This document shows positions 3,923 through 37,728 of a stretch of 37,996 nucleotides of DNA, one piece after another (the stretch's first letter is position 1; every line of letters begins with the position of its first letter). Under the pieces are notes generated by a model that ran no database searches, had not been told where the DNA came from, and saw only the letters and a list, made by a program, of their open reading frames with translations. Both the position numbers and the translations under genes were made by a program. The stretch lies in assembly GCA_902773285.1 (NCBI GenBank), contig CACYDS010000009.1:1-37996 (forward strand), in the 5' to 3' direction. The stretch comes from an uncultured Pseudomonadota bacterium. Its GTDB lineage: Bacteria; Pseudomonadota; Alphaproteobacteria; RUG11792.

Positions 3923-3924
3923 CA

Positions 3925-5010
3925 ATGTTTTCAACGCTAACGAAATACATCATAAAGAATTTTATCAAGAGTTTCATAGTTGTATTTTTATGTTTCTACG
4001 TAATCATCTCGCTTCTAGAGTTAATGGATGCTGTTCGACAATACTTTTCCGCAGGATATTCTCCATCGGTAACTCAAATTATGAAAATCACATTATGTCG
4101 TGCAACTGTGACAATTTGCACGTGCTTTTCATTTGCGGTATTGTTTGCAACAGTGATATTTTTCACAACGATGCACAACCATCTCGAGCTCAATATTATA
4201 AAAGGATCGGGTGCATCACCATATAAAATTCTACGTATGCTTTTTGTTGCGGTCTCTATCTTAAGCCTATCTTACATATCGGTTTTTGATACCTTATCCG
4301 TTTATTCATATAGAACGCAGGATATCAGCCTTGCAAAGCCACAATCTAAAGGTGAGAATTTAAGCGTTACCAGTAAAGGAATATGGTTTCGGGATATATG
4401 TGATAACAAATCTTACATAATTTATGCAAGGAATTTTGATCGTATCACTACTTCTTTGAATGGGATTAGAGTTTTTGAATTTGATGAGAAAGGCAACTTC
4501 GTAAATACGATACTGGCTCATTCCGCATTGATCAAGGATAACGTTTGGTATATACAACGTTGCAAAATAATTACGCGTAGTGGAGATACGATCAAGCAGG
4601 ATGTACATACATTGCCAACAAAACTTTCGTATAAAACAATTAACAAAATGGTGGCTGATCCTCACAGTATTTCTTTCTGGAAAATTATGAAATTAGCGAA
4701 TCTTCTTGAAAAAGTTGGTTTATCAAGTAGATCTTATCAGATGCACTGGTTTTTGCGCATATCTACGATATTACAAATATTTGCATTTGTAGCGATAGCT
4801 GCAGCATTTCTTATGCGGTATAACCATCGCGATCGTAAGCCGTATGTTCAAAAAGCCTCAGCTCTTATTGCCTGCGCCTTCCCTCTGCATTTTATCAATA
4901 ACATCATCCTCGCATACGGCGAGAATGGGGCTATGCCACTCTCAGTCTCAACTTTCCTAGTTCCAATAGCCACTTTGCTTGCGGGGATATTATTTCTGAA
5001 TGAAACGTAA
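3925..5010 (+). CDS. lptG: LPS export ABC permease, LptF/LptG family
   Basis: 361 aa. The N-terminal LTKYIIKNFIKSF pattern and the TM - periplasmic domain - TM layout fit the family. The start lies 2 nt after the lptF stop. Confidence 0.75.
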   Translation: MFSTLTKYIIKNFIKSFIVVFLCFYVIISLLELMDAVRQYFSAGYSPSVTQIMKITLCRATVTICTCFSFAVLFATVIFFTTMHNHLELNIIKGSGASPYKILRMLFVAVSILSLSYISVFDTLSVYSYRTQDISLAKPQSKGENLSVTSKGIWFRDICDNKSYIIYARNFDRITTSLNGIRVFEFDEKGNFVNTILAHSALIKDNVWYIQRCKIITRSGDTIKQDVHTLPTKLSYKTINKMVADPHSISFWKIMKLANLLEKVGLSSRSYQMHWFLRISTILQIFAFVAIAAAFLMRYNHRDRKPYVQKASALIACAFPLHFINNIILAYGENGAMPLSVSTFLVPIATLLAGILFLNET

Positions 5011-5950: not shown

Positions 5951-6613
5951 ATGGCGAATTTGGGAGCAACGAGTTTGAGACATTACATGTCCGGCATTGA
6001 CGGTACAATTCCCGGAATTGGTGGATGTCCTTTTGATATGGATAAGTTGCAAAACGACTATGTCAATGGAGCGATAACCCCAAACAGAATAATTCACTTT
6101 ACAGGGGATGAGCTAAAGACAGACGTCAAAATGTCGCTTTCACCATTGAACGACTATGGCAATAAGGATCATGAAGTTCTTGATGTTATCGCTTGTTCTG
6201 GCTTTTACGAAACGTCGACTCTTAGTTTTAGAATACCAAATCTGCATAAGCCTGGTGCTGCTCGAGCCTCAGATGTTTGGGTTGTTATTCCGCAGAATAT
6301 CATTGTGCCGCAGTTAGTGAAAAAACTGCATCAGGGGGCTATTGATGGTATATACATCGCTACTTTATCATTCCTAAATGCTGGTGATGAAGATAAGCCG
6401 CAAGTCACTCAGGTGCATGACTATACAAGCTGTTTTATAAAATTTGTAGATTCGTTGAGCTATGGAGCCCTAGCAGTATTTGCATTTTCATTTGTCAGAT
6501 TAAAGATAACACAGCATGACTATAAGCAAATAAGTGAAAAAGGAGCTAATGGAGCGGGCGGACAATATGTCTACGAATTTGATTATAACGCAGCTCTTGG
6601 AAAAAAAGGGTAA
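5951..6613 (+). CDS. hcp: Divergent Hcp-like (type VI secretion tube) protein with an extra ~50-aa N-proximal insertion
   Basis: By eye it aligns to Hcp1-type sequences as I remember them. EVLDVIACSGF matches EEIDVLAWSWG. SDVWVVIPQNIIVPQLVKKLHQGAIDGIYIATLSFLNAG matches the DKSTPxL...G...L.IRKAG segment. The C-terminal FSFVRLKITQHDYKQISEKGANGAGGQYVYEFDYN matches LNFAQVQVDYQPQKADG...YGWN. An alternative start is the ATG at 5987 (MSGIDG). Confidence 0.6.
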   Translation: MANLGATSLRHYMSGIDGTIPGIGGCPFDMDKLQNDYVNGAITPNRIIHFTGDELKTDVKMSLSPLNDYGNKDHEVLDVIACSGFYETSTLSFRIPNLHKPGAARASDVWVVIPQNIIVPQLVKKLHQGAIDGIYIATLSFLNAGDEDKPQVTQVHDYTSCFIKFVDSLSYGALAVFAFSFVRLKITQHDYKQISEKGANGAGGQYVYEFDYNAALGKKG

Positions 6614-7673: not shown

Positions 7674-10600
7674 ATGTCACGTACGTATCGATTACTGATT
7701 ATAATTTTATTGGGAATGTTACCAATATATCAGGCAGATGCTGGGGATAGTACGGATACAGAAGAAGTGGCTGGGAATTCATCAGAGGAATCGGAAGAGC
7801 CTGTCGAGCCTCAATTGTATGATTTTCATGATATTCTAACTCTAGAAGAAGGGTCGCAGGTGATTTTTGGCACCGGATTGTTTCGGAGTACGTCCGGACT
7901 TGTTAACTATACCAATAAGGTACAATTGCGTCCCAATTCAACATTGACGTTACGAGCTGGCGATGGAGAAAACACCGGAGTGTTCCACAATTATGGAAGA
8001 TGTGAGATGTATAAAAATTCCAAAATAACTGGCGGAGGAACGATTTTTGAACATGGACGGTTTGAAGATGACAATGCAAACAATGTCCGAGCATCTCAAA
8101 ATAAAGCTGATTATGAGCGAGGATACATAATTGACTACTACGATACTCAACAAGACCTCACGACAGATCAAGAAATTCAGAATGCCGCTTATTACGATTT
8201 AGTGAATAATGAAGATGCGCCTATACGAAAATTTAAGATTTATTACATGGGGTGTGGCATATTCACCACTTCTAAAGAACTCGGAGATCCTAGTATTCAG
8301 GCAACTGATTTTGCTGAAATTACTGATTCAATGAGGGGAACAGACAACCAGGGAAAAATAGATTCAAGTATCATCTTTAAAAGGGATGCCCTTGATTTCA
8401 ATCAAACAGCCGGCTCCATTGATACAGCTTACGATTTGAGAACGCTGTCAAATGACTATGGTTCGTTGGGAACGATACACATTTCTGACCAAACAGATGA
8501 TATTAAATCATCGTTCTTTTCAATACGTGGATTTGATACTGAAGACGCCGGGCATGACTGCTCAGGGACAGACGGCTCCACATATTTTAAATTTGGACGA
8601 AATTTAGACAGAGATGTTTGGGTTCCAAAGGTTGATGATAAGGTTGTGCTAGGAAAAACAATGCCAGACACAGAAAATGCCGCCGCATATGAGCAGGACA
8701 TTATGGATACGCTGAACACAAGTGCCGAAAACAATGACAATCTCTTTGCGTATAAGGATTGGGAGCCAAATGATCCAGTGACAACTTATCACGGAGACAA
8801 TTCGTGGTTTAATGGTGTTTATAAGTTGAAACGCGGAGCCATTATCGTAAAAAATACAGCAGGAATGTTTGGTGGACGAGTTGAGCTCGGAGATGCGGAT
8901 GTATACGAGAGCCCTACGGGAGCTGGCACTGGAACTTTGGCATTACATAGAGATTTAGTTGCAGGTAACGAAGATGCAAAAAATTTCATAAAAAATGTGA
9001 GGCCTACTGAATTTGAGTGGGAAGGTGGCGCGAAAGATGAATACAACAAGCCTGACATCTATATGAACGGTAACTCTACACTTTTCTTCAATTTGCAACC
9101 AGACCAAAACGGAAATCAGATATTTTCATTCTATGGAAACATAACTGGCACTGAACGAGATAGGCTGATATTTGAACAAGGAGAAGTCAGAATTAAGGGA
9201 GATTGCTCTGGCTTTAAAGGTAGCATTGCAGTGACTCCAGGGGCTAAGTTTGAAGTGAGAAGTAGCGATGCCGGAAGTAGTAGTACATACCAGGGAAAGT
9301 TTCCGAATGCGAATATATACCAAGTTTATGGCGCAGATGCTGGAGAAAATGCAGGAAAGTTTGTGACAAATCCGACAGCGGTAACGTCAGTAGATACTGC
9401 TACTATGGAGAATGTCACGATAAATAACGGTATCATGGAGCTGAACAATGCCGGCAGTGAAGATGGCGGGAAGATTACCTTAAAGAGCGCAAATATTGAA
9501 AGCACGGCGATGACGACATTGAACGATGAATCTAATATTAAAGATACAGTGATAAGAGGGGTGCTCGTTGCAAAAGGCGATATGACTGTCGAGAATACGA
9601 CTTTGGAAGGAGGTGTGCTCGTTCTAGACAATGCAACTTTGACAACAGATAACATGACGGCAGGATCTACGATTGCAAGTTGGGGAAATGGGAACTACAG
9701 GGATGTAGTAAATATTGGAGCTAACGTTGGTGCAGGAGCAGGGTATTTCCGCATTACTCAGCAGCATACTTTGAAGTTGTTTTCGGACTACAACGTTACT
9801 ACTGGCGAAGCTGATTACATAAATGTTGCTAACTCGGTTGCTAATATACAAACAGCTGGTGGTATAGCCGTCGCTGGTATGAACTTCAATGAAATGCCGA
9901 CAAATGACCAATATGTATTTAAGATATATGATGGTGCCGGTCACACAGATAATATGCCTGTTACCATCGGTGGCTCATACAATGGTGGCGATCCTGTATT
10001 TGATGTATATGTCAATGGGACTTTTAATCCGACTAATACCAATCCCATAAATGGTATAAACGCCGGTGGAATTGATAATGTAGGAGATACCAAATTAGAC
10101 TATAACGTTACAAATAATGCACAGAAAGTTACGACATACTTAGATAACGGCGTGCGCATTCTGGAATTCGGCAATGGAAACATATATAAAGTCGAAGGCC
10201 AGTCCGCTGGGCGATATGGAAATGTTGTTCTTACGAAATATCTTACCGATAGATCCGTTGTTGCGGACGTTGTCCAAAGTGGCGCCATTAGCTCTATTGC
10301 GCTAAACATTGGAGATACAATATCTGATGCAGATGACATTTTAAACTCATCGATTTTCTCAAATAGTGAAGCTGCCTTGTTAGATTCTGAGGTAAAAACG
10401 CGAGGAACTTCTGGCGGCACTTCATCCACAAACGAAGAATCCCAAACAGAGAAGCATCATAGAAATGATGCATTACCGCTTTCAGAGAAAAAAACTAAAA
10501 AATATAGGATTTGGAACAAAACTTTTGGAGAGCATGACGCAATTGACTTGCGAGGAAGTAGCAATATGAGCATGAATGAAGCAGGAACAATTCTAGGATT

Positions 10601-11294
10601 TGACAGCGAAGATATGAAATTCAATTCGTTTGGGTATGATACGATGCTGAGGCCTACAATTTTCCTGGGACTTCAACACAATAATCTTAGGTATAAAGGC
10701 GATAAATATGGCATCAATGGTTATTTTGGCGGCGCCAAAGCATCACTGTATGCCAAAAATCAGGTTCTTGAAGTGTTTGGGCTATATGAACAATTCAACA
10801 CCAGAGCTACGTTGCCAGCGAATTACTCAGGTTCATATCAAAAAATTAAGGCTAAGACCCATATATTGAATTTGGGGGCAAAATATGCCATAGACGTTAA
10901 ATTACACCAAAACCTATATATTCGTCCTAATGTATCCTTGGGCTATGCATTTATGTGGTCTCCTGCATTTACTGGATATAACGAAGCTAGTCATAAATTG
11001 CGCAATCGCCATATGATTTCTGTGGCGCCTGGCGTTAGCCTTATTCGAAGGCAGGGAGATTGGCTCATTCGAGGATTTGTAGCATATCATCGCAAATTCG
11101 GCACGAAAGGGCGAACGAAAGCGACAGGAGTGTCTATGAAAACAGATCTGACCAAAAAGAGATTCTTAGAATATGGAGCGGAAGTCACAAAAGATAATAT
11201 AGCTAACAACACAAGCGCGAGCCTAAAACTATCAAGGAAAACCTTTGGTATCCGCGGATTTAAGGCAACGATATCTGTCGGCATAAAGTTCTAA
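7674..11294 (+). CDS. Large autotransporter outer-membrane/surface protein (type Va)
   Basis: A GGAGG RBS lies 7 nt upstream. There is a Sec signal peptide (MSRTYRLLIIILLGMLPIYQADA|GD), a ~900-aa Asn/Gly/Thr-rich passenger, and a ~280-aa C-terminal beta-barrel-like domain with alternating hydrophobic strands ending in a terminal Phe (ISVGIKF). Confidence 0.85.
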   Translation: MSRTYRLLIIILLGMLPIYQADAGDSTDTEEVAGNSSEESEEPVEPQLYDFHDILTLEEGSQVIFGTGLFRSTSGLVNYTNKVQLRPNSTLTLRAGDGENTGVFHNYGRCEMYKNSKITGGGTIFEHGRFEDDNANNVRASQNKADYERGYIIDYYDTQQDLTTDQEIQNAAYYDLVNNEDAPIRKFKIYYMGCGIFTTSKELGDPSIQATDFAEITDSMRGTDNQGKIDSSIIFKRDALDFNQTAGSIDTAYDLRTLSNDYGSLGTIHISDQTDDIKSSFFSIRGFDTEDAGHDCSGTDGSTYFKFGRNLDRDVWVPKVDDKVVLGKTMPDTENAAAYEQDIMDTLNTSAENNDNLFAYKDWEPNDPVTTYHGDNSWFNGVYKLKRGAIIVKNTAGMFGGRVELGDADVYESPTGAGTGTLALHRDLVAGNEDAKNFIKNVRPTEFEWEGGAKDEYNKPDIYMNGNSTLFFNLQPDQNGNQIFSFYGNITGTERDRLIFEQGEVRIKGDCSGFKGSIAVTPGAKFEVRSSDAGSSSTYQGKFPNANIYQVYGADAGENAGKFVTNPTAVTSVDTATMENVTINNGIMELNNAGSEDGGKITLKSANIESTAMTTLNDESNIKDTVIRGVLVAKGDMTVENTTLEGGVLVLDNATLTTDNMTAGSTIASWGNGNYRDVVNIGANVGAGAGYFRITQQHTLKLFSDYNVTTGEADYINVANSVANIQTAGGIAVAGMNFNEMPTNDQYVFKIYDGAGHTDNMPVTIGGSYNGGDPVFDVYVNGTFNPTNTNPINGINAGGIDNVGDTKLDYNVTNNAQKVTTYLDNGVRILEFGNGNIYKVEGQSAGRYGNVVLTKYLTDRSVVADVVQSGAISSIALNIGDTISDADDILNSSIFSNSEAALLDSEVKTRGTSGGTSSTNEESQTEKHHRNDALPLSEKKTKKYRIWNKTFGEHDAIDLRGSSNMSMNEAGTILGFDSEDMKFNSFGYDTMLRPTIFLGLQHNNLRYKGDKYGINGYFGGAKASLYAKNQVLEVFGLYEQFNTRATLPANYSGSYQKIKAKTHILNLGAKYAIDVKLHQNLYIRPNVSLGYAFMWSPAFTGYNEASHKLRNRHMISVAPGVSLIRRQGDWLIRGFVAYHRKFGTKGRTKATGVSMKTDLTKKRFLEYGAEVTKDNIANNTSASLKLSRKTFGIRGFKATISVGIKF

Positions 11295-11329: not shown

Positions 11330-11989
11330 TTATTTCATCAAATAATCCATTAACTCATGAAAATTTTGAGGAGTTAACTTTGCGGGTTGTTCCGTTGAAA
11401 TTTTACGCAACACTTCAGGTATAGAGAGCTTTTGTTCGTGCAATTTTATTGCATTGTATAAAGCATATATGTGGTTAGACAAATCTGTATATTCTCTATG
11501 TTGAAACTCTTCTTTTATTAATTCATCTGAACAATTTGCATATTGTTCGCTTACCTCATCATAATCATACAATCGTAACACCTCCAGCGATTGCAGCGAT
11601 TGTCGCATATCTGTTACATTTTGCTTCTTCACCAACAAATCCGCCAAACAAGTTGAAACTAATATTCTGTATATTTCCCAAAGTCTCAATGCCTTGCTGT
11701 AATCAAATATCGTTTCAATATACAGCGAAAAAAGCTCAGGATTTGAATTTCCGGTCCTTGTTTTTGTCTTTACCATCCAAGCATGTTCTATCATATGGGC
11801 AATTTCATGTATTAGGAAAACCTCAGCATCTGTAGTCGACATGTACGTTAATTTTAAGCAGTAGTTATCAGTGATTTTCTCCGGATCCATAAATCTCAAT
11901 TGGATTTTTTTAAGCCACTCTTCATATTTTTGTTGATCTTGAGGATCATCAAACTTATATTTTTCCTTTTCTGCATCAGCTTCAGTCAT
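11330..11989 (-). CDS. Hypothetical protein with an HExxH metallopeptidase-like motif
   Basis: 219-aa ORF with an ATG start. Its only recognisable motif is FLIHEIAHMIEHAW (HExxH followed by E-H). There is no signal peptide or TM segment. Confidence 0.55.
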   Translation of the reverse strand: MTEADAEKEKYKFDDPQDQQKYEEWLKKIQLRFMDPEKITDNYCLKLTYMSTTDAEVFLIHEIAHMIEHAWMVKTKTRTGNSNPELFSLYIETIFDYSKALRLWEIYRILVSTCLADLLVKKQNVTDMRQSLQSLEVLRLYDYDEVSEQYANCSDELIKEEFQHREYTDLSNHIYALYNAIKLHEQKLSIPEVLRKISTEQPAKLTPQNFHELMDYLMK

Positions 11990-12198: not shown

Positions 12199-12555
12199 TT
12201 AATGCGTTTCAAACCAACATATAGCATCATATCCATTGTCATACTCAGGTTGCTGTTCTCTGGCTAGTTTCTCATAATAACTTGCTTTCTCTGCTTCATT
12301 CAGTTCTTCAGAATGCTCTGGATCTAGATATACAACACCAGAGCTCCCCGGCTTGATTATCCGCAAATACGGCGGGACGTCCTCAAGCCCATACGAAATG
12401 ACGTCTACACACGATCCTGAATCAACTGTCCATTCAGCATATGTAAATTCCGTCTTAGCAATTGCTCTTTCAACAACTCCTATCAGATACTCTCCAATCT
12501 CTCCACTATCTTGGAGCAATTTTTTATAAAAGTCTTTAGCCCTATTTTTTACCAA
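12199..12555 (-). CDS. Hypothetical protein, possibly the 3' remnant of a decayed longer gene
   Basis: 118 codons open with no ATG anywhere, so the ORF-track start is a TTG. The same frame continues upstream through three stops to an ATG at 12810. Confidence 0.35.
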   Translation of the reverse strand: MVKNRAKDFYKKLLQDSGEIGEYLIGVVERAIAKTEFTYAEWTVDSGSCVDVISYGLEDVPPYLRIIKPGSSGVVYLDPEHSEELNEAEKASYYEKLAREQQPEYDNGYDAICWFETH

Positions 12556-12952: not shown

Positions 12953-13029
12953 GGGTCTTTAGTTCAGTTGGTTAGAACCCTCCGCTCATAACGGAGTTGT
13001 CGTAGGTTCGAGTCCTACAGGACCCACCA
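12953..13029 (+). tRNA. tRNA with CAU anticodon (elongator Met or lysidine-dependent Ile2; not distinguishable by eye)
   Basis: The cloverleaf was folded by hand. Acceptor GGGTCTT/AGGACCC, D stem GTTC/GAAC, anticodon stem CTCCG/CGGAG with loop CTCATAA, T stem GTAGG/CCTAC. CCA is encoded. Confidence 0.9.
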
Positions 13030-13045
13030 ATTTTCGCTGAAATTT

Positions 13046-13636
13046 TTATAAAGTGAGTGCGGTTTTTATGCTCGTAGGAATGGGCTCGTTTGATACTGCT
13101 GTCAGGTCCGTTAGCGTGGCTAAGACTTTACATCTTGAAAAATGCTCTATTGTATCAATTAGCGTCGTGTTGCCGTTCAAGATGATACCTAAGATATCAA
13201 TGTTCCGTGCTCTTAAAACCCCGATGGTCAAGAATATATGATTTAAAAATCCTAATTTAGATTTCGCCACTATTAATGCCTTTGCATTCAGAAAATTGAT
13301 TAAATCAGCCATCATTATGTTTTTGGTAATTGGCACGAGAGCGCCGCCGGCCCCTTCAATCACTGTATTATTTGGGGGGCATTGTCTCTTTATGGTATCT
13401 ACATCAATATCTATTCCTTCAAGATGTGCCGCATCATATACCGATAGTGGCGCCTTCAGTCTATATGCGTTAGGAATAATATGTGTTGTCGGAGAAAACT
13501 GAATGATTGTATTAGCATCCGAATCATCACCGGTCTGTATCGGCTTAAAATAGGAAGCCGCAGTATTTTTGCAGATCCATGCAGAAGTTATTGTTTTTCC
13601 GATATCTGTATCAGTCCCTGTGACGAATATATTCAT
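13046..13636 (-). CDS. bioD: ATP-dependent dethiobiotin synthetase
   Basis: MNIFVTGTDTDIGKTITSAWI is a P-loop-type BioD N-terminus. EGAGG is also present, and the 196-aa length is typical. Confidence 0.88.
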   Translation of the reverse strand: MNIFVTGTDTDIGKTITSAWICKNTAASYFKPIQTGDDSDANTIIQFSPTTHIIPNAYRLKAPLSVYDAAHLEGIDIDVDTIKRQCPPNNTVIEGAGGALVPITKNIMMADLINFLNAKALIVAKSKLGFLNHIFLTIGVLRARNIDILGIILNGNTTLIDTIEHFSRCKVLATLTDLTAVSNEPIPTSIKTALTL

Positions 13637-13689
13637 GCAGCACCTTGCTCGAAACTATATCTCTTATCTTATCAAAGAACAGAGCAATG

Positions 13690-14025
13690 TTATTTGCTAA
13701 TACAACAAGGCATAACAAAAAACGCTATAAGAGAATCACGCGTGGCAGTAGCTGGATCTAATTGTCCAGATTTTATCGAAAGTTCATTATTAATCACGCG
13801 TTGAAATATCTCTTGTTGTAATTTCGCACCTAGCCCACCATTTATCAACCTTTTTTCCAGGATTTTATGTATAAGCATTGCGTTTGCGGAAGCTTCGGTT
13901 TCATTTAATCCATCGTTTAGAGTGATAGAAGGGAAATTTTTAGACACAGCCATTGATGGCTTCTTTTCTTTCTCGGGCAAAGTATCATGAAGCTGTCCGA
14001 AAATATCATTTTGCATAATCTTCAT
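13690..14025 (-). CDS. Hypothetical 111-aa protein, translationally coupled to tssG
   Basis: The ATG lies 2 nt after the tssG TAG. No TM segment, signal peptide or recognisable motif was found. Confidence 0.5.
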   Translation of the reverse strand: MKIMQNDIFGQLHDTLPEKEKKPSMAVSKNFPSITLNDGLNETEASANAMLIHKILEKRLINGGLGAKLQQEIFQRVINNELSIKSGQLDPATATRDSLIAFFVMPCCISK

Positions 14026-14027
14026 AA

Positions 14028-14999
14028 CTAAACACTCTCTGTAAAAAATGCACTTTTGGAACTGTGCATCCCGAATATAAATGTATTCTTATTTAAACTA
14101 TTATCTCCATTAAGCAATGTTTCCTTCACTAGGCATTTATCCAAAAAGAAATGGAGCTTGACAGCAACACCATGTGGAACGTAAAGGCATATGATTTCCT
14201 TCATTTTTTGAAGAGCAGAAAACGTTTGATCTTTTGAATATTTTTTGGGCAGAAACTTTGCATACTGCTCAAAATCCAAAGCCCCAATTAAAACCGTTAT
14301 ACCTTTCGTCGCATCCCAAATTTTATCTCCCAATAGACAGGTTTTCCCCAATTTATTATGCCTCCCTTTTTTTCCAATAGACATCCGCTCTCCGAGAGGA
14401 GCTTGTATAAAACCGCCCTCAAATTGGCGAATTTCTATTGGCACTTTAAAAAAGCTTTCTAGAATAGCTTTCAAACCAGCACTAGATCTCGTGCGACGCC
14501 AAAACAAATTTTGAACAGAAACCTTAAATTGTTCCGGGATCATCCCGGCTTTTGACTTCATATTTAATTCTAATCCAGATAAGCTAAAAATTATGTTTCC
14601 TATGACAGAATTTTCAATCGGGCTTGACAGGGTTTCAATATTTTGACGTTTCAAAAACGCATATCTTAGCGAAAGTATTTTGCTATTGTATATATCAAAA
14701 TAATCGTACAACGCACCGCGTGTTGTACGCTCATAACTTAAAAACTCTTCTGTATAACTGTCTGGTATTGGACTTTCAATTCCAACAATACCATTCATAT
14801 TCACATGTATCTCCGCAAGGCCATCTTTTATGCCCTCAACCTTTGAGACGTCTATGTACTTCGATGTATAATTCACGTTTGATTTGATGTCGACAAACTT
14901 AATTTCGCATCTTTTTAGCGCAACATCTAACGCCTTCACAAATGAGAACTTTTCAGCCTCATATATAAATCTTTCTAAAAGTGAATCAGCCTTTGCCAC
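14028..14999 (-). CDS. tssG: Type VI secretion baseplate subunit TssG (ImpH/VasB family)
   Basis: 323 aa with a GTG start. FSFVKALDV matches the F.Ff.avrlLe start. The segment VNMNGIVGIESPIPDSYTEEFLSYERTTRGALYDYFDIYNSKILSLRYAFLKR matches the GL.G..GpLP..yTe...r.r..d.al..FlDiFnhR...LfYrAW core. RRTRSSAGLKAILESFFKVPIEIRQFEGGF...LGDKIWDATKGITVLIGALDFEQYAKFLP matches the C-terminal TssG pattern. Confidence 0.8.
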   Translation of the reverse strand: MAKADSLLERFIYEAEKFSFVKALDVALKRCEIKFVDIKSNVNYTSKYIDVSKVEGIKDGLAEIHVNMNGIVGIESPIPDSYTEEFLSYERTTRGALYDYFDIYNSKILSLRYAFLKRQNIETLSSPIENSVIGNIIFSLSGLELNMKSKAGMIPEQFKVSVQNLFWRRTRSSAGLKAILESFFKVPIEIRQFEGGFIQAPLGERMSIGKKGRHNKLGKTCLLGDKIWDATKGITVLIGALDFEQYAKFLPKKYSKDQTFSALQKMKEIICLYVPHGVAVKLHFFLDKCLVKETLLNGDNSLNKNTFIFGMHSSKSAFFTESV

Positions 15000-15031
15000 T
15001 TAAATCCCCATCCGGCATCTGATAAAAAAAT

Positions 15032-15108
<77 letters not shown>

Positions 15109-15284: not shown

Positions 15285-16079
15285 TTACTTTATAACTGAT
15301 TCTATAGCTGGAAGCAACTGTTCGGCAGAGGAAAGACGCAACATTGTTGCCTTACCATCCTTTAATGTAAATATTGCAGGCACTAACGGCAATTTCATGC
15401 TCTCGGCCAATCTGCCATTTTCTGCCAACTTTTTATCGCAATCATCCATCATACCTTCTATTTCCTTATTATCCAAACCGGCTGCTTTCAACGACGATTC
15501 GATGAATTTCTTGTCTATATCTCCCTTGCTTGAAGTCACATGCTCAATAAACTTTATGGCCTTTTCTGCACTTTTCTCGTATACGGCCAAATAGACCTTT
15601 GCAAGAGTTACAGAATCGTTGCCCAAAACCGCGACAGGAAGCACCTTAAAGCACAGATCCTTCTTTGCCTTCACTAAGTTCAACATTTGTTTTTGTATCT
15701 CGACGCAGGCTTTCTCCAATGGATCGATGAAACAAATCACTGATGCCTTGGATTCAAGCTTCCCAAACTTCATAGCTAATTTAGTAATATCTGCACTTTT
15801 ATCGGATACAGTCTGTTCAATTTTTTTCAATTCATCCTCGCGCTGTTTTGCTATTCCCTCTCCCATAGCATTCATAACAAGTTGAGGATTTTGTTTTACT
15901 GTATCAACTATTATACCTCGGACTTTTTCATCAAAAGTTGCGCTTTCAGCCACTGATGATGGCTTCTTGGGGCAAAAATATGCGGCAGACGCCACTATTA
16001 ATGCCAAAATAGACACGATTATAGAAGCTTTACAACCGCATCCAGAACATTTTTGTTTGTTTTCCATAAATTTTTCCAA
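15285..16079 (-). CDS. DsbA-family (COG1651-like) thioredoxin-fold protein with a degenerate active site (ExxC instead of CxxC)
   Basis: The layout is an N-terminal anchor, a helical linker (VKQNPQLVMNAM, compare YL..NPE), then a thioredoxin fold. ICFIDPLEKAC sits where VEFFDYNCGYC is expected. LVPAIF sits where the cis-Pro GTPAFV motif is expected. Confidence 0.6.
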   Translation of the reverse strand: MEKFMENKQKCSGCGCKASIIVSILALIVASAAYFCPKKPSSVAESATFDEKVRGIIVDTVKQNPQLVMNAMGEGIAKQREDELKKIEQTVSDKSADITKLAMKFGKLESKASVICFIDPLEKACVEIQKQMLNLVKAKKDLCFKVLPVAVLGNDSVTLAKVYLAVYEKSAEKAIKFIEHVTSSKGDIDKKFIESSLKAAGLDNKEIEGMMDDCDKKLAENGRLAESMKLPLVPAIFTLKDGKATMLRLSSAEQLLPAIESVIK

Positions 16080-18469: not shown

Positions 18470-18799
18470 AGATATTCCTCGGAAAAAACGTTACAACCAT
18501 TGTTTTCAATAGTCTATTATACCCCGCGCTGAAAATGCAAAATGTTTTCTGAGCAAAAACGTATAACTCATTGGAGTAATTTTGCATATTTTCTGCCAAT
18601 GACATGATCATATTTAGGATTCCACCTAAAATCTATATTTTTAGAAATATCTGTTAAAAAGTTGTTAAGGAGGCTAGGCTAAAAATTAGCTAATACCAGT
18701 TACCACACAGCTCAGCAATTCCTATTTATAGATTTGACTAGATAAGCATTGTGGGGTAAACTGAGAACTGGGGCAAAAGATTGTTTTGAGGGAGATGCG

Positions 18800-20455
18800 A
18801 TGAAGTTTGGTATTTTAAAAGGGCTTTTGATAATTACATTGGGGAATATTTTAGCGCTCAGCTCATTTGCTAGTAGCAACAATGTTCACGTCTTTTCAAA
18901 GAAGGATAATCCTATAAATGCCAAGCGTGAGCTTGCAAAAATTTGGATATCCATCAGATTTAACAATCACATACAAAATTTAACGAACAAAAACTGTTGG
19001 GTTTTTGAGGGTAAGTATAAATCTAGTATCGACAACATTCTAACTGAGATAAGTAATTCAATGCTTGATATATGCCCGTATGCAAAATCGGCTAAATACA
19101 GTGATGGTAGCAAGATTGCTGAATTTTTCAAAGAGGAAGGTTTCAATCCAATATCAGCATACCAAGGAGCGAACTGGAATTATGTCGTATTGATGAATTT
19201 GCTGCAAAATATGAGAAACAGAGATATCGAGAGCATAAAATACGAGTGGCAGAAGATTCACATTTTAGATGAAGTAGTTATGGACATACGGAATGCAAAC
19301 ATAAGACAAGCCAGTCAATATGACTATGATCGGAAGCATTACATAGAGAGTTTAAATCATGCGGCAAACGATATACTGCAGTATTTTGATAGCTTAGATT
19401 TGTGGAGATTTGTTCTGCGAATAAAACAAAAATTTTATAAACCGACCAGTCCAGTTCAAAAAAATACGTCCGTCCCCTCCCCCATGCAAATAACAAGAGA
19501 TCAAATGCCTCATGGGATAAAAAATGAAGGAGGCACTTGCTATCTAAATGCGGTACTACAGTGTTTATATAACAGTGCTCCAATAAGAACCGCCATACAA
19601 AAATTAAGTCAATCACCGCAGAACAAATTGGCACAACAGATAAATAACATATTCCTTCAACTTGCGACAAATGGGACGAATGAACTGGATTTCAATGGAG
19701 CGGTCTCAAGCATAGCTAGGCACATAGGAATGGATCGCATAAGCAATAAACAGCCTTCCATCGGCAATCAAGACCCAGCAGAGGCTATAGGAAACATCCT
19801 AGATACGCTAATAGATGAAGAAATAGCGCCGCAGCTAAGTCGTATAAACCAAAAATACAGCAAGCAATCAGATGCCTCTAAAAAAGGACAATTATCACAA
19901 AATCTTCGCCACCATAGCACAATCGGCCAAATTTGTGACATTAAATGTAGTGATATCATAACTTGTAATAAATGCGATAATCGCAGTACGAATGATACCC
20001 GGCTAACCAAACTGGATCTCGCCCTACTAAAGGCACACAGCAAAGAAATTTTGCTGCACGATTTAATCAGATCGTTCGAAGCCGAGGAAATCTTGAATGA
20101 TACAAACAAATGTTGGTGTCCGAACTGTAAGCGAAACGAGCCGGCATCGAAGCGCATAGTGCTTAACACGTTGCCTAAGGTTTTGTGCTTAAGCTTAAAA
20201 AGATATGAGGTTAAAGACAAAAAAACGTCTTTCAGAGGCGATACAATATCATTTCCCGATGTAATAAAAATAAGACAATATAAATACAAACTTCGCTCAT
20301 TCGTCTATGGCGGATATATAAAGGGTGGACATATCATAATGGAAGGCTATGCGGATGATGCAACTCCATATACTGCTAACGATGGACAAGTATTAATCAA
20401 AGGCGAATTATCACCCTCAAAAGCTCAAATGTTATTTTATGAGCGGATGGAATAG
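18800..20455 (+). CDS. Secreted USP/UCH-type (peptidase C19-like) cysteine protease, putative deubiquitinase, with an unknown N-terminal module
   Basis: The likely start is the ATG at 18800, after GAGGGA; the ORF track starts at an upstream alternative codon at 18749. The signal peptide is MKFGILKGLLIITLGNILALSSFA|SS. The Cys box is GIKNEGGTCYLNAVLQCLYNS, with the Cys codon at 19538-19540. Zinc-ribbon fingers CNKCDN...CPNCKR and LPKVLCLSLKRYE are present. The His box is YKLRSFVYGGYIKGGHIIMEGY...YTANDGQV. Confidence 0.8.
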   Translation: MKFGILKGLLIITLGNILALSSFASSNNVHVFSKKDNPINAKRELAKIWISIRFNNHIQNLTNKNCWVFEGKYKSSIDNILTEISNSMLDICPYAKSAKYSDGSKIAEFFKEEGFNPISAYQGANWNYVVLMNLLQNMRNRDIESIKYEWQKIHILDEVVMDIRNANIRQASQYDYDRKHYIESLNHAANDILQYFDSLDLWRFVLRIKQKFYKPTSPVQKNTSVPSPMQITRDQMPHGIKNEGGTCYLNAVLQCLYNSAPIRTAIQKLSQSPQNKLAQQINNIFLQLATNGTNELDFNGAVSSIARHIGMDRISNKQPSIGNQDPAEAIGNILDTLIDEEIAPQLSRINQKYSKQSDASKKGQLSQNLRHHSTIGQICDIKCSDIITCNKCDNRSTNDTRLTKLDLALLKAHSKEILLHDLIRSFEAEEILNDTNKCWCPNCKRNEPASKRIVLNTLPKVLCLSLKRYEVKDKKTSFRGDTISFPDVIKIRQYKYKLRSFVYGGYIKGGHIIMEGYADDATPYTANDGQVLIKGELSPSKAQMLFYERME

Positions 20456-20555
20456 GAGGAATGCGTGGAGTGCTTCATTTCTAAAAAAATAATAATTTGT
20501 TAAAAAATTTACGTGTGCTATCCTTCTCCTAAGGTGGTTGGATTTTTCGAATAGG

Positions 20556-21668
20556 ATGCCATATCTTTTATCTACATTAACTTTTTTCCTGTTACTAGGG
20601 GTCGTTGTTGTTGTGCATGAACTGGGCCACCTAATCGTGGCGCGCATAAATGGCGTTTTTTGTGAGGCATTCTCATTTGGATTTGGCAGTGTCCTATTTA
20701 AAAAGAAGGACAAGAAGGGGACGGAATGGCGAATATCGTTATATCCTCTGGGGGGATACGTCAAGATGCTTGGAGATGCAGATGTCTCCAGCGTAAGAGA
20801 AGTAATGCCAGAAGGATATACGGAAGAAGACATGGAACGTATGTCCGTGCATCGCAAAAAGCCATGGCAAAAACTACTAATCGCAGCTGGAGGGCCGTTT
20901 GCAAATTTTGTATTCGCAATTTTGGTGCTTTTTACGTTGTCGACAATCAACGGAGTGCCGGAATATGACAATACAATAACGGTTATTTCAGAACAAAATT
21001 TAGCTTATAGATCCGGCCTCCGAACAGGAGACGTCATAACAAAGGCGAATGGCACAGAAGTAGATAACTTCATTGACATAGCAAAGCAAGTAAAAACTTC
21101 AGCTGGAAGAGATTTGAAGCTTGAATTAAAGCGAAATGGCGAAACGAAGGAATTCAACATCGAGATGTTTGAGCGAACAGAAGATGGAGTGAAGCCAATA
21201 CAAAGTCTTGGCATCGCTCCGAAGGGATTCAAATACAAAAAAGTTTCTATTCTGCAATCTGTTGGTTCAGCAATATTGACGACCTGGCGTTTGGCTTATT
21301 CGAATGTAACCGCTATTTGTAAGATAGCTACTGGATCGATGAGCCCGAAAAACGTTGGCGGGATAATCTCGATTTTTAAAGTTTCTTCCGATAGCGCAGA
21401 GGCGGGAATCGTCAGTTTCATAACAATGATCGCAATGATATCAATCATATTGGGAGCGGTAAACCTCTTGCCAATACCGGTTCTGGATGGCGGTTCAATA
21501 GCCATTGCTGCAATAGAATGGGTCATCGGAAAACCGTTGAATAAAAAATTCGTAAATGTAATATTTACGGTTGGATTAGTTGCGGTAGTTGGCCTGATGG
21601 TATTGGGAATGTGGAATGACTTGGTAAATATAAAGTTTTTTAGTTGGTTGGAGAGTTTAGTAAAATGA
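20556..21668 (+). CDS. rseP: RIP metalloprotease RseP (site-2 protease)
   Basis: HELGHLIVAR HExxH in TM1, a central PDZ domain, and the C-terminal NLLPIPVLDGG motif. A TTG at 20538 is an alternative start. Confidence 0.9.
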   Translation: MPYLLSTLTFFLLLGVVVVVHELGHLIVARINGVFCEAFSFGFGSVLFKKKDKKGTEWRISLYPLGGYVKMLGDADVSSVREVMPEGYTEEDMERMSVHRKKPWQKLLIAAGGPFANFVFAILVLFTLSTINGVPEYDNTITVISEQNLAYRSGLRTGDVITKANGTEVDNFIDIAKQVKTSAGRDLKLELKRNGETKEFNIEMFERTEDGVKPIQSLGIAPKGFKYKKVSILQSVGSAILTTWRLAYSNVTAICKIATGSMSPKNVGGIISIFKVSSDSAEAGIVSFITMIAMISIILGAVNLLPIPVLDGGSIAIAAIEWVIGKPLNKKFVNVIFTVGLVAVVGLMVLGMWNDLVNIKFFSWLESLVK

Positions 21669-24223
21669 AGAAATTAGTAACAAGCCTAGTTTTAGGGTTA
21701 GTAATAGCAAACAATGCCGGAGCCGTAAAGGTTACTGATATAAAATATATCGGATGCGAACGCATAGAAAAAGAGACGGTGAGTACGTATTTTCCGATAC
21801 AAGTCGGCGACGAGTGCGATACAGAAACGATTAATGATGCGTTGAAAACTTTAAAAGAAACGAATTTCTTTAAAGACGTAAAAGTCCGACTGTCCGGTTC
21901 AACCGTTATCGTCGAGGTGCAGGAGGCGCCGATTATAAATAAGATATCGTTTGAAGGAAATTCAAAACTATCGGATGCGGACATAAAAAAGGCAATCAAG
22001 CTAGGTTCGCATGAGCCTTTGTCGCCAGCCAAGGTCAAGGAAGTTCAGCAAGGATTGTTACAAATATACCGCAAAATGGGACGCTATAATGCGACTGTGA
22101 CACCGAAAATCATTAAGTTGAAAGACAATCGCGTCAACTTAGTTTACGAGATAAAAGAAGGCGTGGCTGCCGGCATCAGCAAGATAATTTTTGTCGGTAA
22201 TAAAAAAATATCATCATCTGATCTAAGAGACATAATCCATTCAAAAGTGAAGAAATGGTTCAGATTCTTTGTGACAGATGATATATACGACGAAGATCGG
22301 TTAGAGGAAGATAAGATGATAATCACGAAGTATTATCAGGAACGAGGGTATATGGATGCCCGAGTGCTTTCCGCCGTAGCAGAATTAGCGTCGAATAAAG
22401 CATCGTTTGTTTTGACATTCACTATAGATGAAGGCAAATTATACACATTCGACAAAATATCTGTTAAATCGCATATTGCAAAAGTGACAGAAAAGGGGCT
22501 GGATAAAGATTTGTTTTGTCGAAAAGGCGATATCTATTGCGCATCATTTGTTGAGGCGGATGCACATAAAATAGCGCGTATGATAGGGCAAAGAGGATTT
22601 CCGACAGTCAATGTAACACCTAACGTAACTAGGAATTTTGCAAAAAATACAGTGGGAATTGTTTTTAACATAACTGAGGGCGAAAAAATTTACATATCTA
22701 AAATCGTAATCAGCGGAAACACCAAAACCAGAGATCACGTCATACGCAGAGAAATCGTTTTGCAGGAAGGAGATGCATATAATCAATCGTTCGTGAAGAT
22801 GTCAGAAGGCAAACTCAGAGAGTTAGGATTTTTCGATAAAGTCGATATACAGGCAATACCTGATCCGAATTCGCCAGACAAGTGCATACTACACGTAACT
22901 GTATCTGAGGCGCCAACTGCTGAAGCAATGGCAAATGCGGCTTATTCAACGACAAGCGGTTTTGGATTTGAGTTACAATACAACGAACAAAACTTTTTAG
23001 GAACAGGAAAAACATTATCTGTCTTTTTAGGATCCAGTCGTACAGCCTCAGGAAAAAGTCGAATAACGAAAGAAGATGGCTCGACTGGCAAGGAGGATCA
23101 AAAGGCAAAGTTCAGGTTTTTGAACAATGTCCAATTATCAGTCTCAGATCCACATATCTTTGATAAAGACATGGAAGGTTCGATCTCGTTCCATCGTAAT
23201 GTGAACTCGGTATTCGATGCCTTTAATACGAATGAGATAGGAATGGGATTGGGCTTAAGCTATGAACTCAGTCCACGTTGGACTCAAGATTGGGGCTACA
23301 CGCTGGATAGGCGCAAATTCCAAGATGTCAGCAAAACAGCATCCCCTATAATTTTGGCTCAAGTGCAAAAACGTGATGGAGACAAAGTTTCAACAAGAAG
23401 CGCAACGAACATATTGTCCGAAATAAAACACACAATTGCTTATAATACGTATTTCATACGCGGATTAAAAGGATCTATGAGTGTGTCTTTGGCGACATCG
23501 ATAGCTGGGTTTGGTGGCAATGCTAGACATATAAAGAATGTCTTGACTGGCACGTATGTAATGCCTGTGTTTAGACGTTCAAAACTATCGTTTTCCTTGT
23601 CTACTGGTATGCTAAATAAGCTTGGAGGCAAAGATCCGAATATAATGGACAGCTTCATTTATGGAGCAGATTCTTTCAGAGGATTTGAATACGCTGGTGT
23701 AGGCCCAATCGCTTCAACATTAATGCAGACGAATGAGAAAGCGATACAGGATATAATTGCTTGGAATAACAGCCATCTGCCTGCACAACAAAAAGTTGTA
23801 CCAGCTCCTGCATACAGATCTCAGAAAGATTTCCTTGGGGCGAAGAAATTCTGGAAAGGCACGATAGAATACACATTCCCTCTGGGACTGCCTGAAGAAC
23901 TGCAATTCAGAGGATTCATATTCACAGATATAGGCGCCCTGTGGGATGCCCCAAATAAGAAGAACAAGTTCATAAAAGAAGTAGAGGGGACATTGAAAGA
24001 TGCGCAAGGATTAGAGCACAACAAGATCGAATTTAGCATGGATGACACTACTGTGAAAGCTCAAAAAATATTTGATAAGTGCAAAATACGGCAGTCCATC
24101 GGATTAGGTATTTCATTCGTAACCCCATTTGGTCCGATAAGCATAGCTTATGCGAAGCCAATCAAGAAATGTAAATATGACGAACAACAAAGATTCATAT
24201 TTGGGTTCCGCTCATCGTTCTAA
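21665..24223 (+). CDS. bamA: Outer membrane protein assembly factor BamA (Omp85)
   Basis: The ATG at 21665 overlaps the rseP stop (ATGA). Signal peptide MKKLVTSLVLGLVIANNAGA, POTRA repeats, and a C-terminal barrel ending FGFRSSF. Confidence 0.93.
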   Translation: MKKLVTSLVLGLVIANNAGAVKVTDIKYIGCERIEKETVSTYFPIQVGDECDTETINDALKTLKETNFFKDVKVRLSGSTVIVEVQEAPIINKISFEGNSKLSDADIKKAIKLGSHEPLSPAKVKEVQQGLLQIYRKMGRYNATVTPKIIKLKDNRVNLVYEIKEGVAAGISKIIFVGNKKISSSDLRDIIHSKVKKWFRFFVTDDIYDEDRLEEDKMIITKYYQERGYMDARVLSAVAELASNKASFVLTFTIDEGKLYTFDKISVKSHIAKVTEKGLDKDLFCRKGDIYCASFVEADAHKIARMIGQRGFPTVNVTPNVTRNFAKNTVGIVFNITEGEKIYISKIVISGNTKTRDHVIRREIVLQEGDAYNQSFVKMSEGKLRELGFFDKVDIQAIPDPNSPDKCILHVTVSEAPTAEAMANAAYSTTSGFGFELQYNEQNFLGTGKTLSVFLGSSRTASGKSRITKEDGSTGKEDQKAKFRFLNNVQLSVSDPHIFDKDMEGSISFHRNVNSVFDAFNTNEIGMGLGLSYELSPRWTQDWGYTLDRRKFQDVSKTASPIILAQVQKRDGDKVSTRSATNILSEIKHTIAYNTYFIRGLKGSMSVSLATSIAGFGGNARHIKNVLTGTYVMPVFRRSKLSFSLSTGMLNKLGGKDPNIMDSFIYGADSFRGFEYAGVGPIASTLMQTNEKAIQDIIAWNNSHLPAQQKVVPAPAYRSQKDFLGAKKFWKGTIEYTFPLGLPEELQFRGFIFTDIGALWDAPNKKNKFIKEVEGTLKDAQGLEHNKIEFSMDDTTVKAQKIFDKCKIRQSIGLGISFVTPFGPISIAYAKPIKKCKYDEQQRFIFGFRSSF

Positions 24224-36660: not shown

Positions 36661-37728
36661 CTACCTAATATACGTCACATAACACCAGCTCGTGTCGTAT
36701 GCATAACGAAATTTTAAACCAGAAAAAAGCGCTTCTACCGGATTGCTAATTCGTTCGGCAACAAGCATCCATCTCACTTTTTCTTCTTCGCTTGTTTTGT
36801 TGTAACAACTTACAGAGTCGCTCTGAATTTGACACAATCGGTAGCCATCTCCACAAATATTAAATTCATAATCATAGATATTATGTGCCATATGTTCCTC
36901 TTTTATTCTTATCCAATCATATTTGGTAATATCAGATCCGATTGCTTTCATGGATATACTGTACACGACTTTTCTACTCTTCAGCTTCAATAAAGGAGCT
37001 TTTGTCCCAGAAATTTTAGGTTCAAAATCGATGCGAACGAACCCAACAGGCATCCATGCATAATATGCCGGATTTTTCGCCTGCTCTTGTATCAGGGCAT
37101 CTATGGATTTTCCTTTCGTTTCTTCGTAACACCGATAAAATCTGGTCATTTCATCAGATAAAGACAGCGCTTTATCATAGGCTTTTATATTGCTAATAGC
37201 ATTTGTTACTTTTCTTGTAATATAATATACTCCTTCTGCAAGATAATGGGCACAAATTCTAGATTTTACTGTATTAAAAATTTTGTTCTTTTTGTCTTCA
37301 AATATTTCGTACCCGTCGCCTACTTCGCCATTTAAGTAACTATGCTTAAGTACATGCAGATAGTTGTACAGTACAACAGCATTCCAGTGCTTTTGTTTAT
37401 AGTCTCTTGCATTAGCATTAAATGTTATAACATCTCCTGCATTTTTCCTCGCAAACTCGTTCTTGTCTGTAACACAATCCGCAACTGCCTGTGCTATTAC
37501 TTTTATTATTGATTCGTTATATTTTGTTTGTGTTATCCAATTGTTATTATTATCCGCATCGGCAATTTTATGGTTTGCAAGAATTCGCCAACTTATATTG
37601 TTAAACAGATTTATTATTTCAGACAGGTCGTCACATCCAGCTCGGGCACAACAGCAAAATAATGATACTATTAAATATAACTTGCAAAACTTCCTTATCT
37701 CATTTTTTACTAAAACTGTAATTTTCAT
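36661..37728 (-). CDS. Hypothetical secreted protein sharing an N-terminal module with the USP-like protein
   Basis: 355 aa. There is a signal-peptide-like N-terminus (KLYLIVSLFCCCARA|GC). NNNNWITQTKYNESI...DC...KHWNAVVLYNYL parallels NKNCWVFEGKYKSSI...DIC...ANWNYVVLMNLL in the 18800-20455 product. The C-terminal half was not recognised. Confidence 0.6.
   Translation of the reverse strand: MKITVLVKNEIRKFCKLYLIVSLFCCCARAGCDDLSEIINLFNNISWRILANHKIADADNNNNWITQTKYNESIIKVIAQAVADCVTDKNEFARKNAGDVITFNANARDYKQKHWNAVVLYNYLHVLKHSYLNGEVGDGYEIFEDKKNKIFNTVKSRICAHYLAEGVYYITRKVTNAISNIKAYDKALSLSDEMTRFYRCYEETKGKSIDALIQEQAKNPAYYAWMPVGFVRIDFEPKISGTKAPLLKLKSRKVVYSISMKAIGSDITKYDWIRIKEEHMAHNIYDYEFNICGDGYRLCQIQSDSVSCYNKTSEEEKVRWMLVAERISNPVEALFSGLKFRYAYDTSWCYVTYIR

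Follow-up and report, generated by a model that had tools for sequence, protein, structure and literature searches.

What is a gene for a ubiquitin-specific protease (USP, peptidase family C19) doing in an uncultured alphaproteobacterium, and where would its product act? The question arises from a stretch of 37,996 nucleotides (contig CACYDS010000009.1 of assembly GCA_902773285.1, positions 1 to 37,996 of the forward strand), here called the window. At 18800..20455 on the + strand it holds the coding sequence (CDS) of a 551-amino-acid (aa) protein made up of a putative signal peptide, an N-terminal module (hereafter the N-module) and a USP domain. The reading that we favour, with a probability of about 0.6, is that this protein is a Sec-exported deubiquitinase-like effector of Holosporales from the ruminant gut, analogous to TssM of Burkholderia.

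Results

The USP catalytic domain

The USP domain occupies aa 239-547 (19514..20440, +), as delimited by Pfam PF00443 and by a family profile aligned with USP15, USP4, USP8 and USP2. PF00443 (UCH) matched this region with 78.2 bits against a cut-off of 23.9 (E=9.7e-22), spanning profile positions 2-254 of 254, and was present in 8 of 8 homologues; a second Pfam family, PF13423 (UCH_1), also matched the 551-aa protein (E=5e-18). When the single sequence was compared with the PDB by phmmer, only USP catalytic domains were matched (USP2, 8e-16). The seven-member family profile covered the whole catalytic core in the same database, with USP15 (1.4e-24) and USP4 (1.1e-22), and also USP8 and USP2. 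Judged by sequence, the match of the C-terminal domain to USPs is thus far beyond chance.

The elements of the active site were found in their canonical order. The core of the Cys box (19523..19540, +; codons checked) carries the predicted oxyanion residue Asn242 (19523-19525) and the predicted catalytic Cys247 (19538-19540); the segment GIKN242EGGTC247YLNA aligns to Gl.NlGNTCfmN of USP15/USP4, with the Asn five residues before the Cys. A QDxxE motif, whose role in binding the ubiquitin tail is known from USP7, lies at 19769..19783 (+; Q324, D325, E328), is invariant in the family and aligns to QQDcqEl of USP15. Motifs of this type have been named the QDE-box (PMC3486910). The fingers subdomain is represented by two CxxC pairs of a putative zinc ribbon within a continuous USP15/USP4 alignment: the first (C389, C392; 19964..19975, +) aligns with vCpeC and the second (C440, C443; 20117..20128, +) with yCpnCk of USP15/USP4. 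The predicted catalytic His511 and the gatekeeper position, Ile512, are encoded at 20330..20335 (+), where GGHii aligns to GGHYt of USP15, and the third catalytic residue, Asp528, at 20381..20383 (+), where anDnkV aligns to fdDssV of USP15; the spacing from His511 to Asp528 is the canonical 17 residues.

Asn242, Cys247, His511, Asp528, the QDxxE motif and the four zinc-ribbon cysteines are invariant in the 8-member family. A comparison of 10 divergent USP domains gave the same picture for Cys247, His511 and Asp528, which are invariant, while Asn242 is kept in 9/10. The first histidine of the His-box 'vvHsG' is Tyr, Arg or His in the family of our protein. From this we predict that the C-terminal domain is a cysteine protease with a complete USP fold, made up of a thumb, fingers bearing a zinc ribbon, and a palm. 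The fold assignment stands on these alignments, because the full-length AlphaFold2 (AF2) model, built from an 8-sequence alignment, is poor (predicted local distance difference test score, pLDDT, 46.8, with the palm below 50). A Foldseek search with this low-confidence model nevertheless returned USPs in all of its top 50 matches, with E down to 7.5e-8, template-modelling (TM) scores of 0.3-0.4 and root mean square deviations of 7-12 Å.

A word-indexed profile search for more USPs added one fragment and three distant protist-like USPs (P0010-P0012). In an all-against-all BLAST of the USP domains, scored pairwise, the window's protein was closest to P0136 (121 bits), while P0135 and P0138, which share the N-module with it, were as distant from it as the protist-like USPs.

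The reading frame itself leaves little ambiguity. The mechanical listing of open reading frames (ORFs) begins at a TTG at 18749, in the same + strand frame that ends at 20455. We prefer the ATG at 18800, because a Shine-Dalgarno-like GGAG, read from the sequence at 18791..18794 (+), precedes it with a 5-nt spacer, and because the equivalent Met is the start in all homologues; protein record P0001 is the identical 551-aa product. Two antisense ORFs (19278-19670 and 19768-20289) lie within the gene and were taken as spurious, since the well-supported USP CDS overlaps both. An original prediction, made from the DNA letters and their ORF translations, had drawn the gene at 18800-20455, and the ribosome-binding site and the homologue starts show that it was right. 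The motifs it had listed, GIKNEGGTCYLNAVLQCL, CNKCDN and CPNCKR, LPKVLCLSLKRYE, GGHIIM and ANDGQV, are all present at their places, the codon at 19538-19540 that it had given for the catalytic cysteine encodes Cys247, and its USP (C19) domain is borne out by the Cys box, the His box, the third Asp, the four-Cys zinc ribbon and the PF00443 match.

An isoleucine at the gatekeeper position

In deubiquitinases (DUBs) the catalytic His is directly followed by an aromatic gatekeeper residue, which is reported to be kept in all eukaryotic classes but one and to be required for activity, that of TssM included (PMC10719079). In our protein the residue directly after His511 is Ile512, which is invariant in the 8-member clade, so that an aromatic gatekeeper is absent. 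The same column holds W or Y in the other USPs that carry the N-module (P0135-P0138), Y or W in P0010 and P0011, and T in P0012. The isoleucine is thus specific to this clade, because the other N-module USPs retain Tyr or Trp.

The claim of the original prediction that the C-terminal part carries the full set of USP hallmarks holds for the triad, the QDxxE motif and the zinc ribbon and fails for the gatekeeper. In spite of this we assign the protein to the USP fold family, because the aromatic gatekeeper, near-universal as it is, lies outside the formal definition of the family; the 551-aa protein is, from its alignment, an atypical member of USP/C19 at this position. Relative to canonical USPs, this replacement suggests a shift in specificity or a less active enzyme; its possible consequences are reduced activity, another P2 preference or another modifier.

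The N-terminal signal and export

Signal peptides were judged by a home-made heuristic of n-, h- and c-regions, for the calibration of which exported and cytoplasmic proteins encoded in the window were used. By this measure aa 1-24 (18800..18871, +; MKFGILKGLLIITLGNILALSSFA, followed by SS) form a candidate Sec-type signal peptide, with an n-region charge of +2, a 10-residue maximum of 2.41 in the hydrophobic core and a small-x-small site, SFA, before SS. Similar values were obtained for three proteins of the window (BamA, the solute-binding protein and the 1206-aa protein) and different ones for GyrA and Ffh, and all 8 homologues share the residues F23-A24-S25 around the predicted cleavage site. 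The N-terminus therefore looks like a cleavable Sec signal peptide. The original prediction had proposed such a peptide, which the heuristic recovers and the homologues keep, and had envisaged export through Sec followed by some further route, for which type-II secreted TssM is a direct precedent (PMC10719079).

The window also encodes, at 15285-16079 (-), a membrane-anchored protein of 264 aa with weak DsbA/DsbG-like thioredoxin similarity (E ~3e-4, below cut-offs). It is a possible periplasmic thiol-disulfide oxidoreductase, a function that would be relevant to keeping an exported Cys protease reduced.

The N-module, an orphan helical domain of a small family

Between the signal peptide and the USP domain lies the N-module, whose core (aa 36-215; 18905..19444, +) was delimited by alignments and by an AF2 model, and which is followed by a variable linker (aa 216-238; 19445..19513, +) with low pLDDT in both models and poor conservation in the alignments. 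The alignment of 8 homologues showed that aa ~26-236 are better conserved than the USP domain; the recurring motifs are HI, KY, (I/V)LTE, NWNYVVLMNLL and A..DI..YF..LDLW. The AF2 model of the N-module, built from a 22-sequence alignment, consists of six helices (pLDDT 86.1; predicted TM score, pTM, 0.81).

No relative of the N-module was found in Pfam (E up to 1), in NCBIfam or in a PDB profile search (best E 1.9). Foldseek searches with the model likewise gave nothing, either in the PDB (best E 0.58, TM up to 0.26) or in the BFVD viral library (best E 0.58); weak matches to nuclear receptors and PA28 were rejected as generic helical noise. The module of about 190 aa without known function that the original prediction had set apart proved to be a domain that stands at the N-terminus of all members of a small family of modular, exported proteins. 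It is the more novel part of the protein and a previously undescribed domain.

An exhaustive HMMER profile search of 1.84 billion representative proteins found the N-module in only 19 clusters, and in all 19 it stands at the N-terminus. The profile matches the window's protein with E=7.9e-107, and the two motifs that define membership, NWNY..L.N.L and A..DI..Y...L.L, are both present in it. The C-terminal partner is a USP in P0001 and P0135-P0138 and a calcineurin-like (Metallophos)/PPP phosphatase in P0149 (E=3e-18), while several N-module proteins have C-termini that lack any Pfam match. Starts resembling signal peptides were recognised by the heuristic in ~22/27 N-module proteins; the gene call of P0149 is truncated at its N-terminus, and its ORF extends upstream to a clear signal peptide, MAIINSIFVLLFSIFMFGGQAVA, followed by EF.

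There are several N-module paralogues per genome, in chromosomal loci with housekeeping neighbours. At positions 67-5353 of L002, a contig from a goat-rumen alphaproteobacterial metagenome-assembled genome (MAG), an N-module protein of 491+ aa, an N-module USP and tssK, a gene of the type VI secretion system (T6SS), stand in a row; the USP retains the His-Tyr gatekeeper, and the C-terminus of its 491+ aa neighbour matches no known domain. L008 (2400-6852; also L009) holds two divergently transcribed genes, each coding for a putative signal peptide and an N-module, one with an unknown C-terminus of 550 aa and the other with the calcineurin-like/PPP phosphatase (P0149). In L003, a 342-aa paralogue with an acidic Glu/Gln-rich tail and, as called, no obvious signal peptide is encoded at 3653-4681 (-), 5 kb upstream of the USP gene of that contig. 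The carriers of L003 and L007 are close relatives, as their GpmI proteins are 77% identical.

The window has a second N-module gene, at 36661..37728 (-), recognised by its profile match. Its 355-aa product, with a heuristically predicted signal peptide ending in CCCARA before G, matches the N-module by hmmsearch (E=1.5e-8, aa 52-191) and by hhalign (E=0.003), and shares 45% identity with the L003 paralogue across 100 aa (E=9e-21). Its N-module is divergent (NWNAVVLYNYL), and its C-terminal ~150 aa belong to no known family; a match of this paralogue to Shiga toxin B (E 0.002-0.009), far below cut-offs and inside the N-module, was dismissed as chance. The Cys-rich P0148 (266 aa, with several N-terminal CxxC pairs) showed a weak match to the N-module profile at an internal position; this could reflect chance or another type of architecture, and P0148 was excluded from the family alignment.

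Host bacterium, locus and origin of the gene

GyrA of the window is 70-78% identical to proteins labelled 'MAG: Holosporales bacterium' and 59% identical to those of Candidatus Odyssella and Paracaedibacteraceae, which on sequence grounds places the window in Holosporales. A 2025 review describes the members of this order as living in obligate association with eukaryotes, for the most part protists, and reports a gut-derived clade that includes ruminant sequences, its hosts being unverified (PMC11909080). The same review states that experimental data on the secreted proteins of Holosporales are lacking, and it never mentions ubiquitin. Literature searches combining Holosporales or Paracaedibacter with deubiquitinases or ubiquitin returned nothing relevant, and a preprint on symbionts of rumen ciliates (10.1101/2025.07.29.667580) does not cover Holosporales. 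A host-directed role is the natural reading of the protein, because the order comprises obligate symbionts of eukaryotes, and the host-manipulating effector of the original prediction gains support from this placement.

The USP gene is surrounded by bacterial housekeeping genes: a band-7 gene and ffh lie upstream, and rseP, bamA and tgt downstream, while gyrA, lptFG, fab genes, ribosomal protein genes and prfA are found elsewhere in the window. Directly downstream of the USP gene, rseP (M50 protease, identified by Pfam) and bamA occupy 20538..24223 (+); bamA was assigned from the ORF of the window and the Pfam POTRA/Omp85 annotation of its syntenic counterparts. No terminator-like site was seen between the USP stop codon and rseP. 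The order USP-rseP-bamA is kept in L003-L006 and L010-L012, and band7-ffh-USP in L013. There are eight full-length homologues, at 49-66% identity, plus one fragment. Homologue contigs carry the names of ruminant-gut studies (RUG14374, RGIG3458 Goat_Rumen, STEW19-1, XIEF21-1, GLEN20-2), and the syntenic USP contigs come from at least four independent data sets.

The GC content of the USP gene is 0.377 and that of its third codon positions (GC3) 0.379, compared with 0.400±0.023 and 0.365±0.024 for housekeeping genes; base composition thus gave no sign of a recent transfer. Taken together, the conserved synteny in independent contigs and the native GC and GC3 allow us to conclude that the gene is a resident of a ruminant-gut clade of Holosporales, inherited vertically in it, and neither contamination nor a recent import. 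A horizontal origin of the USP from a eukaryote is plausible, and any such transfer would be old, because the composition is native and the locus is conserved in lineages with no more than 49-66% protein identity.

Comparison with known USPs

Bacterial USPs are rarer than effectors of the CE clan or the OTU type, yet they are known. TssM, which the original prediction named as the bacterial example, is not the sole one: three active USPs, SnUSP1-3, have been published from Simkania (PMC10643670), and USPs have been predicted in Amoebophilus and Cardinium (PMC3486910, PMC8831229). TssM itself is secreted by the type II system, and its proposed role is to free the surface of the bacterium of ubiquitin (PMC10719079). 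Like TssM, whose bacterium lives inside eukaryotic cells, our protein appears to be a USP-fold cysteine protease of a Gram-negative bacterium, in which an N-terminal hydrophobic region and a non-catalytic accessory domain precede the USP domain and export depends on Sec (type II for TssM, a predicted Sec signal here). TssM is, however, without the whole fingers subdomain and has a 'Littlefinger' loop (PMC10719079), whereas our protein keeps Cys4 zinc-ribbon fingers; the accessory domain of TssM is Ig-like, whereas the N-module is all-helical in its model and has no structural match in the PDB; and TssM has a functional aromatic motif after the His, where our protein has Ile. With its fingers present and no Ig-like domain, the protein is outside the TssM family.

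By their published description, SnUSP1-3 resemble our protein in having a full-length eukaryote-like USP domain, canonical active-site residues and hydrophobic regions outside the catalytic domain. They differ in having an aromatic gatekeeper (PMC10643670) and in coming from obligately intracellular Chlamydiota, with predicted type III signals or membrane anchors, and no shared N-module has been reported for them (PMC10643670). SnUSP3 reacts with probes and does not cleave chains (PMC10643670). The proteins Aasi_0770 and Aasi_1805 of Amoebophilus asiaticus and CAHE_0028 of Cardinium hertigii are likewise predicted eukaryote-like USPs, annotated as candidate effectors, of symbionts that live in the host cytoplasm; they belong to Bacteroidota and are biochemically uncharacterised. 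Nothing on a signal peptide or a shared N-terminal module came to light for these proteins: the term 'signal peptide' is absent from PMC8831229, which deals with the Cardinium and Amoebophilus USPs; PMC3486910 was not searched for that term.

The human counterparts are the catalytic domains of USP15/USP4, USP8, USP2 and USP12/46, to which the whole-core profile matched with E from 1e-24 to 1e-17. Shared features are the order Cys box, QDxxE, CxxC...CxxC, PKxL..L.R and His box, and the 17-residue His-Asp spacing. The identity is ~20-25%, the DUSP/UBL and other eukaryotic accessory domains of the human enzymes are missing, and the gatekeeper Tyr is replaced by Ile. The protein is a USP of a known kind; new are its occurrence in Holosporales, the pairing of a predicted Sec signal with a shared orphan N-module, and a gatekeeper position without an aromatic residue.

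Discussion

The protein is best understood, in our opinion, as an exported and probably host-directed enzyme. Judging from its sequence, the signal peptide would take the protein across the inner membrane and be cut after SFA24. The six-helix N-module would take no part in catalysis and, given its distribution, probably serves passage through or retention at the outer membrane, or host targeting. It probably serves a common step, because it is shared by exported proteins with different enzymatic C-termini; a hydrophobic region and an Ig-like domain precede the USP domain of TssM in an analogous way. Catalysis by the USP domain would depend on Asn242, Cys247, His511 and Asp528, positioned by profile alignment. 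Most likely, the enzyme would strip the surface of the bacterium, or host proteins close by, of ubiquitin or a ubiquitin-like modifier. Such deubiquitination would blunt host ubiquitin-dependent autophagy and thereby protect the symbiont.

Several observations weigh against this. The invariant Ile512 stands where the published work makes an aromatic residue a requirement for activity, and the full-length AF2 model is too poor to judge the geometry of the triad. The signal peptide has been recognised by our heuristic, and a Cys protease with a Cys4 zinc site must cross the oxidising periplasm. No outer-membrane route for the protein, such as a type II or TolC-type system, was identified in the window, to which the search was limited. 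Finally, gut-derived Holosporales have not been shown to be intracellular (PMC11909080).

Other explanations have to be weighed against the same evidence. An artefact would be either a pseudogene or a bacterial contig into which eukaryotic DNA had been mis-assembled, and the synteny all but refutes it. USP domains belong typically to eukaryotes and the nearest matches outside the family (P0010-P0012) look like protist-type USPs, but the ORF is intact, with a Shine-Dalgarno site and native base composition, the gene lies between the same bacterial neighbours in contigs of at least four independent data sets, and the USP is preceded by a signal peptide and by a module next to which only bacterial genes were found. 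The protein is also unlikely to be T6SS cargo, with the N-module as a loading or adaptor-recognition domain and the variable C-termini injected. A non-standard T6SS is indeed conserved in almost all Holosporales genomes, its substrates being unknown (PMC11909080). In L002, the two N-module genes, one of them coding for a USP, lie directly upstream of tssK (PF05936, E=4e-35), and in the window tssG is 3.8 kb from the USP gene. Moreover, polymorphic secreted effectors are usually built with a common N-terminal domain and enzymes that vary at the C-terminus. However, T6SS cargo is loaded in the cytoplasm, whereas most N-module proteins, ours included, carry a Sec-type signal peptide that would direct them to the periplasm. 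In neither the window nor L003-L013 does the USP gene have a vgrG, hcp, PAAR or adaptor gene beside it, and adjacency to a T6SS gene such as tssK is confined to L002, the neighbours of the window's USP gene being ffh, rseP and bamA.

These neighbours bring in a housekeeping role in the envelope, in which an old USP fold would have been re-purposed, together with rseP-bamA, for a bacterial substrate in the periplasm or the outer membrane. The strictly conserved position upstream of rseP-bamA with no terminator-like site between, the heuristically predicted export signal and the loss of the aromatic gatekeeper, which enforces Gly-Gly tails, all fit such a role. We consider it rather improbable, as the gene is confined to a narrow clade, with 8-9 close USP members against more than 50 GyrA relatives at ≥70% identity, which is not what an essential envelope function would show; QDxxE and the fingers with their zinc ribbon, ubiquitin-binding features of USPs, are invariant; the fusion of the N-module to a eukaryote-type PPP phosphatase points to host targets; and other N-module USPs lie in unrelated loci. 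The same isoleucine could mean instead that the protein is a catalytically weak or inactive ubiquitin binder, one that serves as a decoy or a shield and not as an enzyme. Ile512 does not vary within the clade, gatekeeper mutants of other DUBs lose activity (PMC10719079), and SnUSP3 offers a precedent for reactivity with probes in the absence of chain cleavage (PMC10643670). Against this stands the invariance of Asn242, Cys247, His511 and Asp528 across proteins that are 49-66% identical, which argues for selection on catalysis and makes an inert binder very unlikely.

Within the preferred reading of an exported deubiquitinase-like effector, we can imagine a bolder variant, speculative and on balance doubtful, in which the N-module is the address tag of an undescribed two-step delivery route and the USP of this clade has been retuned through its Ile gatekeeper to a non-canonical substrate. 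If true, Sec export would be followed by module-dependent passage through the outer membrane or display on the surface, and the route would carry eukaryote-like enzymes (USP, PPP phosphatase and others) from gut Holosporales to the host. The new substrate might be, e.g., ubiquitin attached by ester bonds to the surface of the bacterium, or a ubiquitin-like modifier of protists.

Holosporales are a large and old lineage of obligate protist symbionts without known effectors, and the USP together with the N-module family supplies concrete candidates: a deubiquitinase-like enzyme, a PPP-type phosphatase and unknown C-termini. The characterised bacterial USPs are few (TssM, SnUSP1-3), and a conserved USP that combines an intact predicted triad and zinc-ribbon fingers with an Ile gatekeeper is a ready-made test of the role of this residue. 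The homologues from the ruminant gut point to an overlooked interaction between symbionts and hosts in the rumen, possibly with ciliates or other protists.

Other features of the window

The only T6SS gene recognised near the USP gene in the window is tssG, a lone baseplate gene at 14028..14999 (-), 3.8 kb upstream of the USP gene (PF06996, E=1.5e-40); against TIGR03347 it scored E=3e-39, just below the cut-off. In the genome of the window, T6SS genes seem to lie scattered. Within 12953-15108, tssG, bioD and a 111-aa ORF lie between two tRNA-Met genes of opposite orientation. These tRNA genes were considered as the borders of an island and rejected, since one is of the initiator type and the other an elongator, so that they are not repeats.

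A 1206-aa protein is encoded at 7674-11294 (+). It has a signal peptide ending in …IYQADA before GD, a long Asn/Gly/Thr-rich middle part and the C-terminus …ATISVGIKF, and it gave no match in Pfam, NCBIfam or PDB sequences; by eye, as a purely visual impression, it looks like an autotransporter or a surface adhesin. Four further ORFs of 111-220 aa, at 5951-6613 (+), 11330-11989 (-), 12199-12555 (-) and 13690-14025 (-), have no match in Pfam or NCBIfam.

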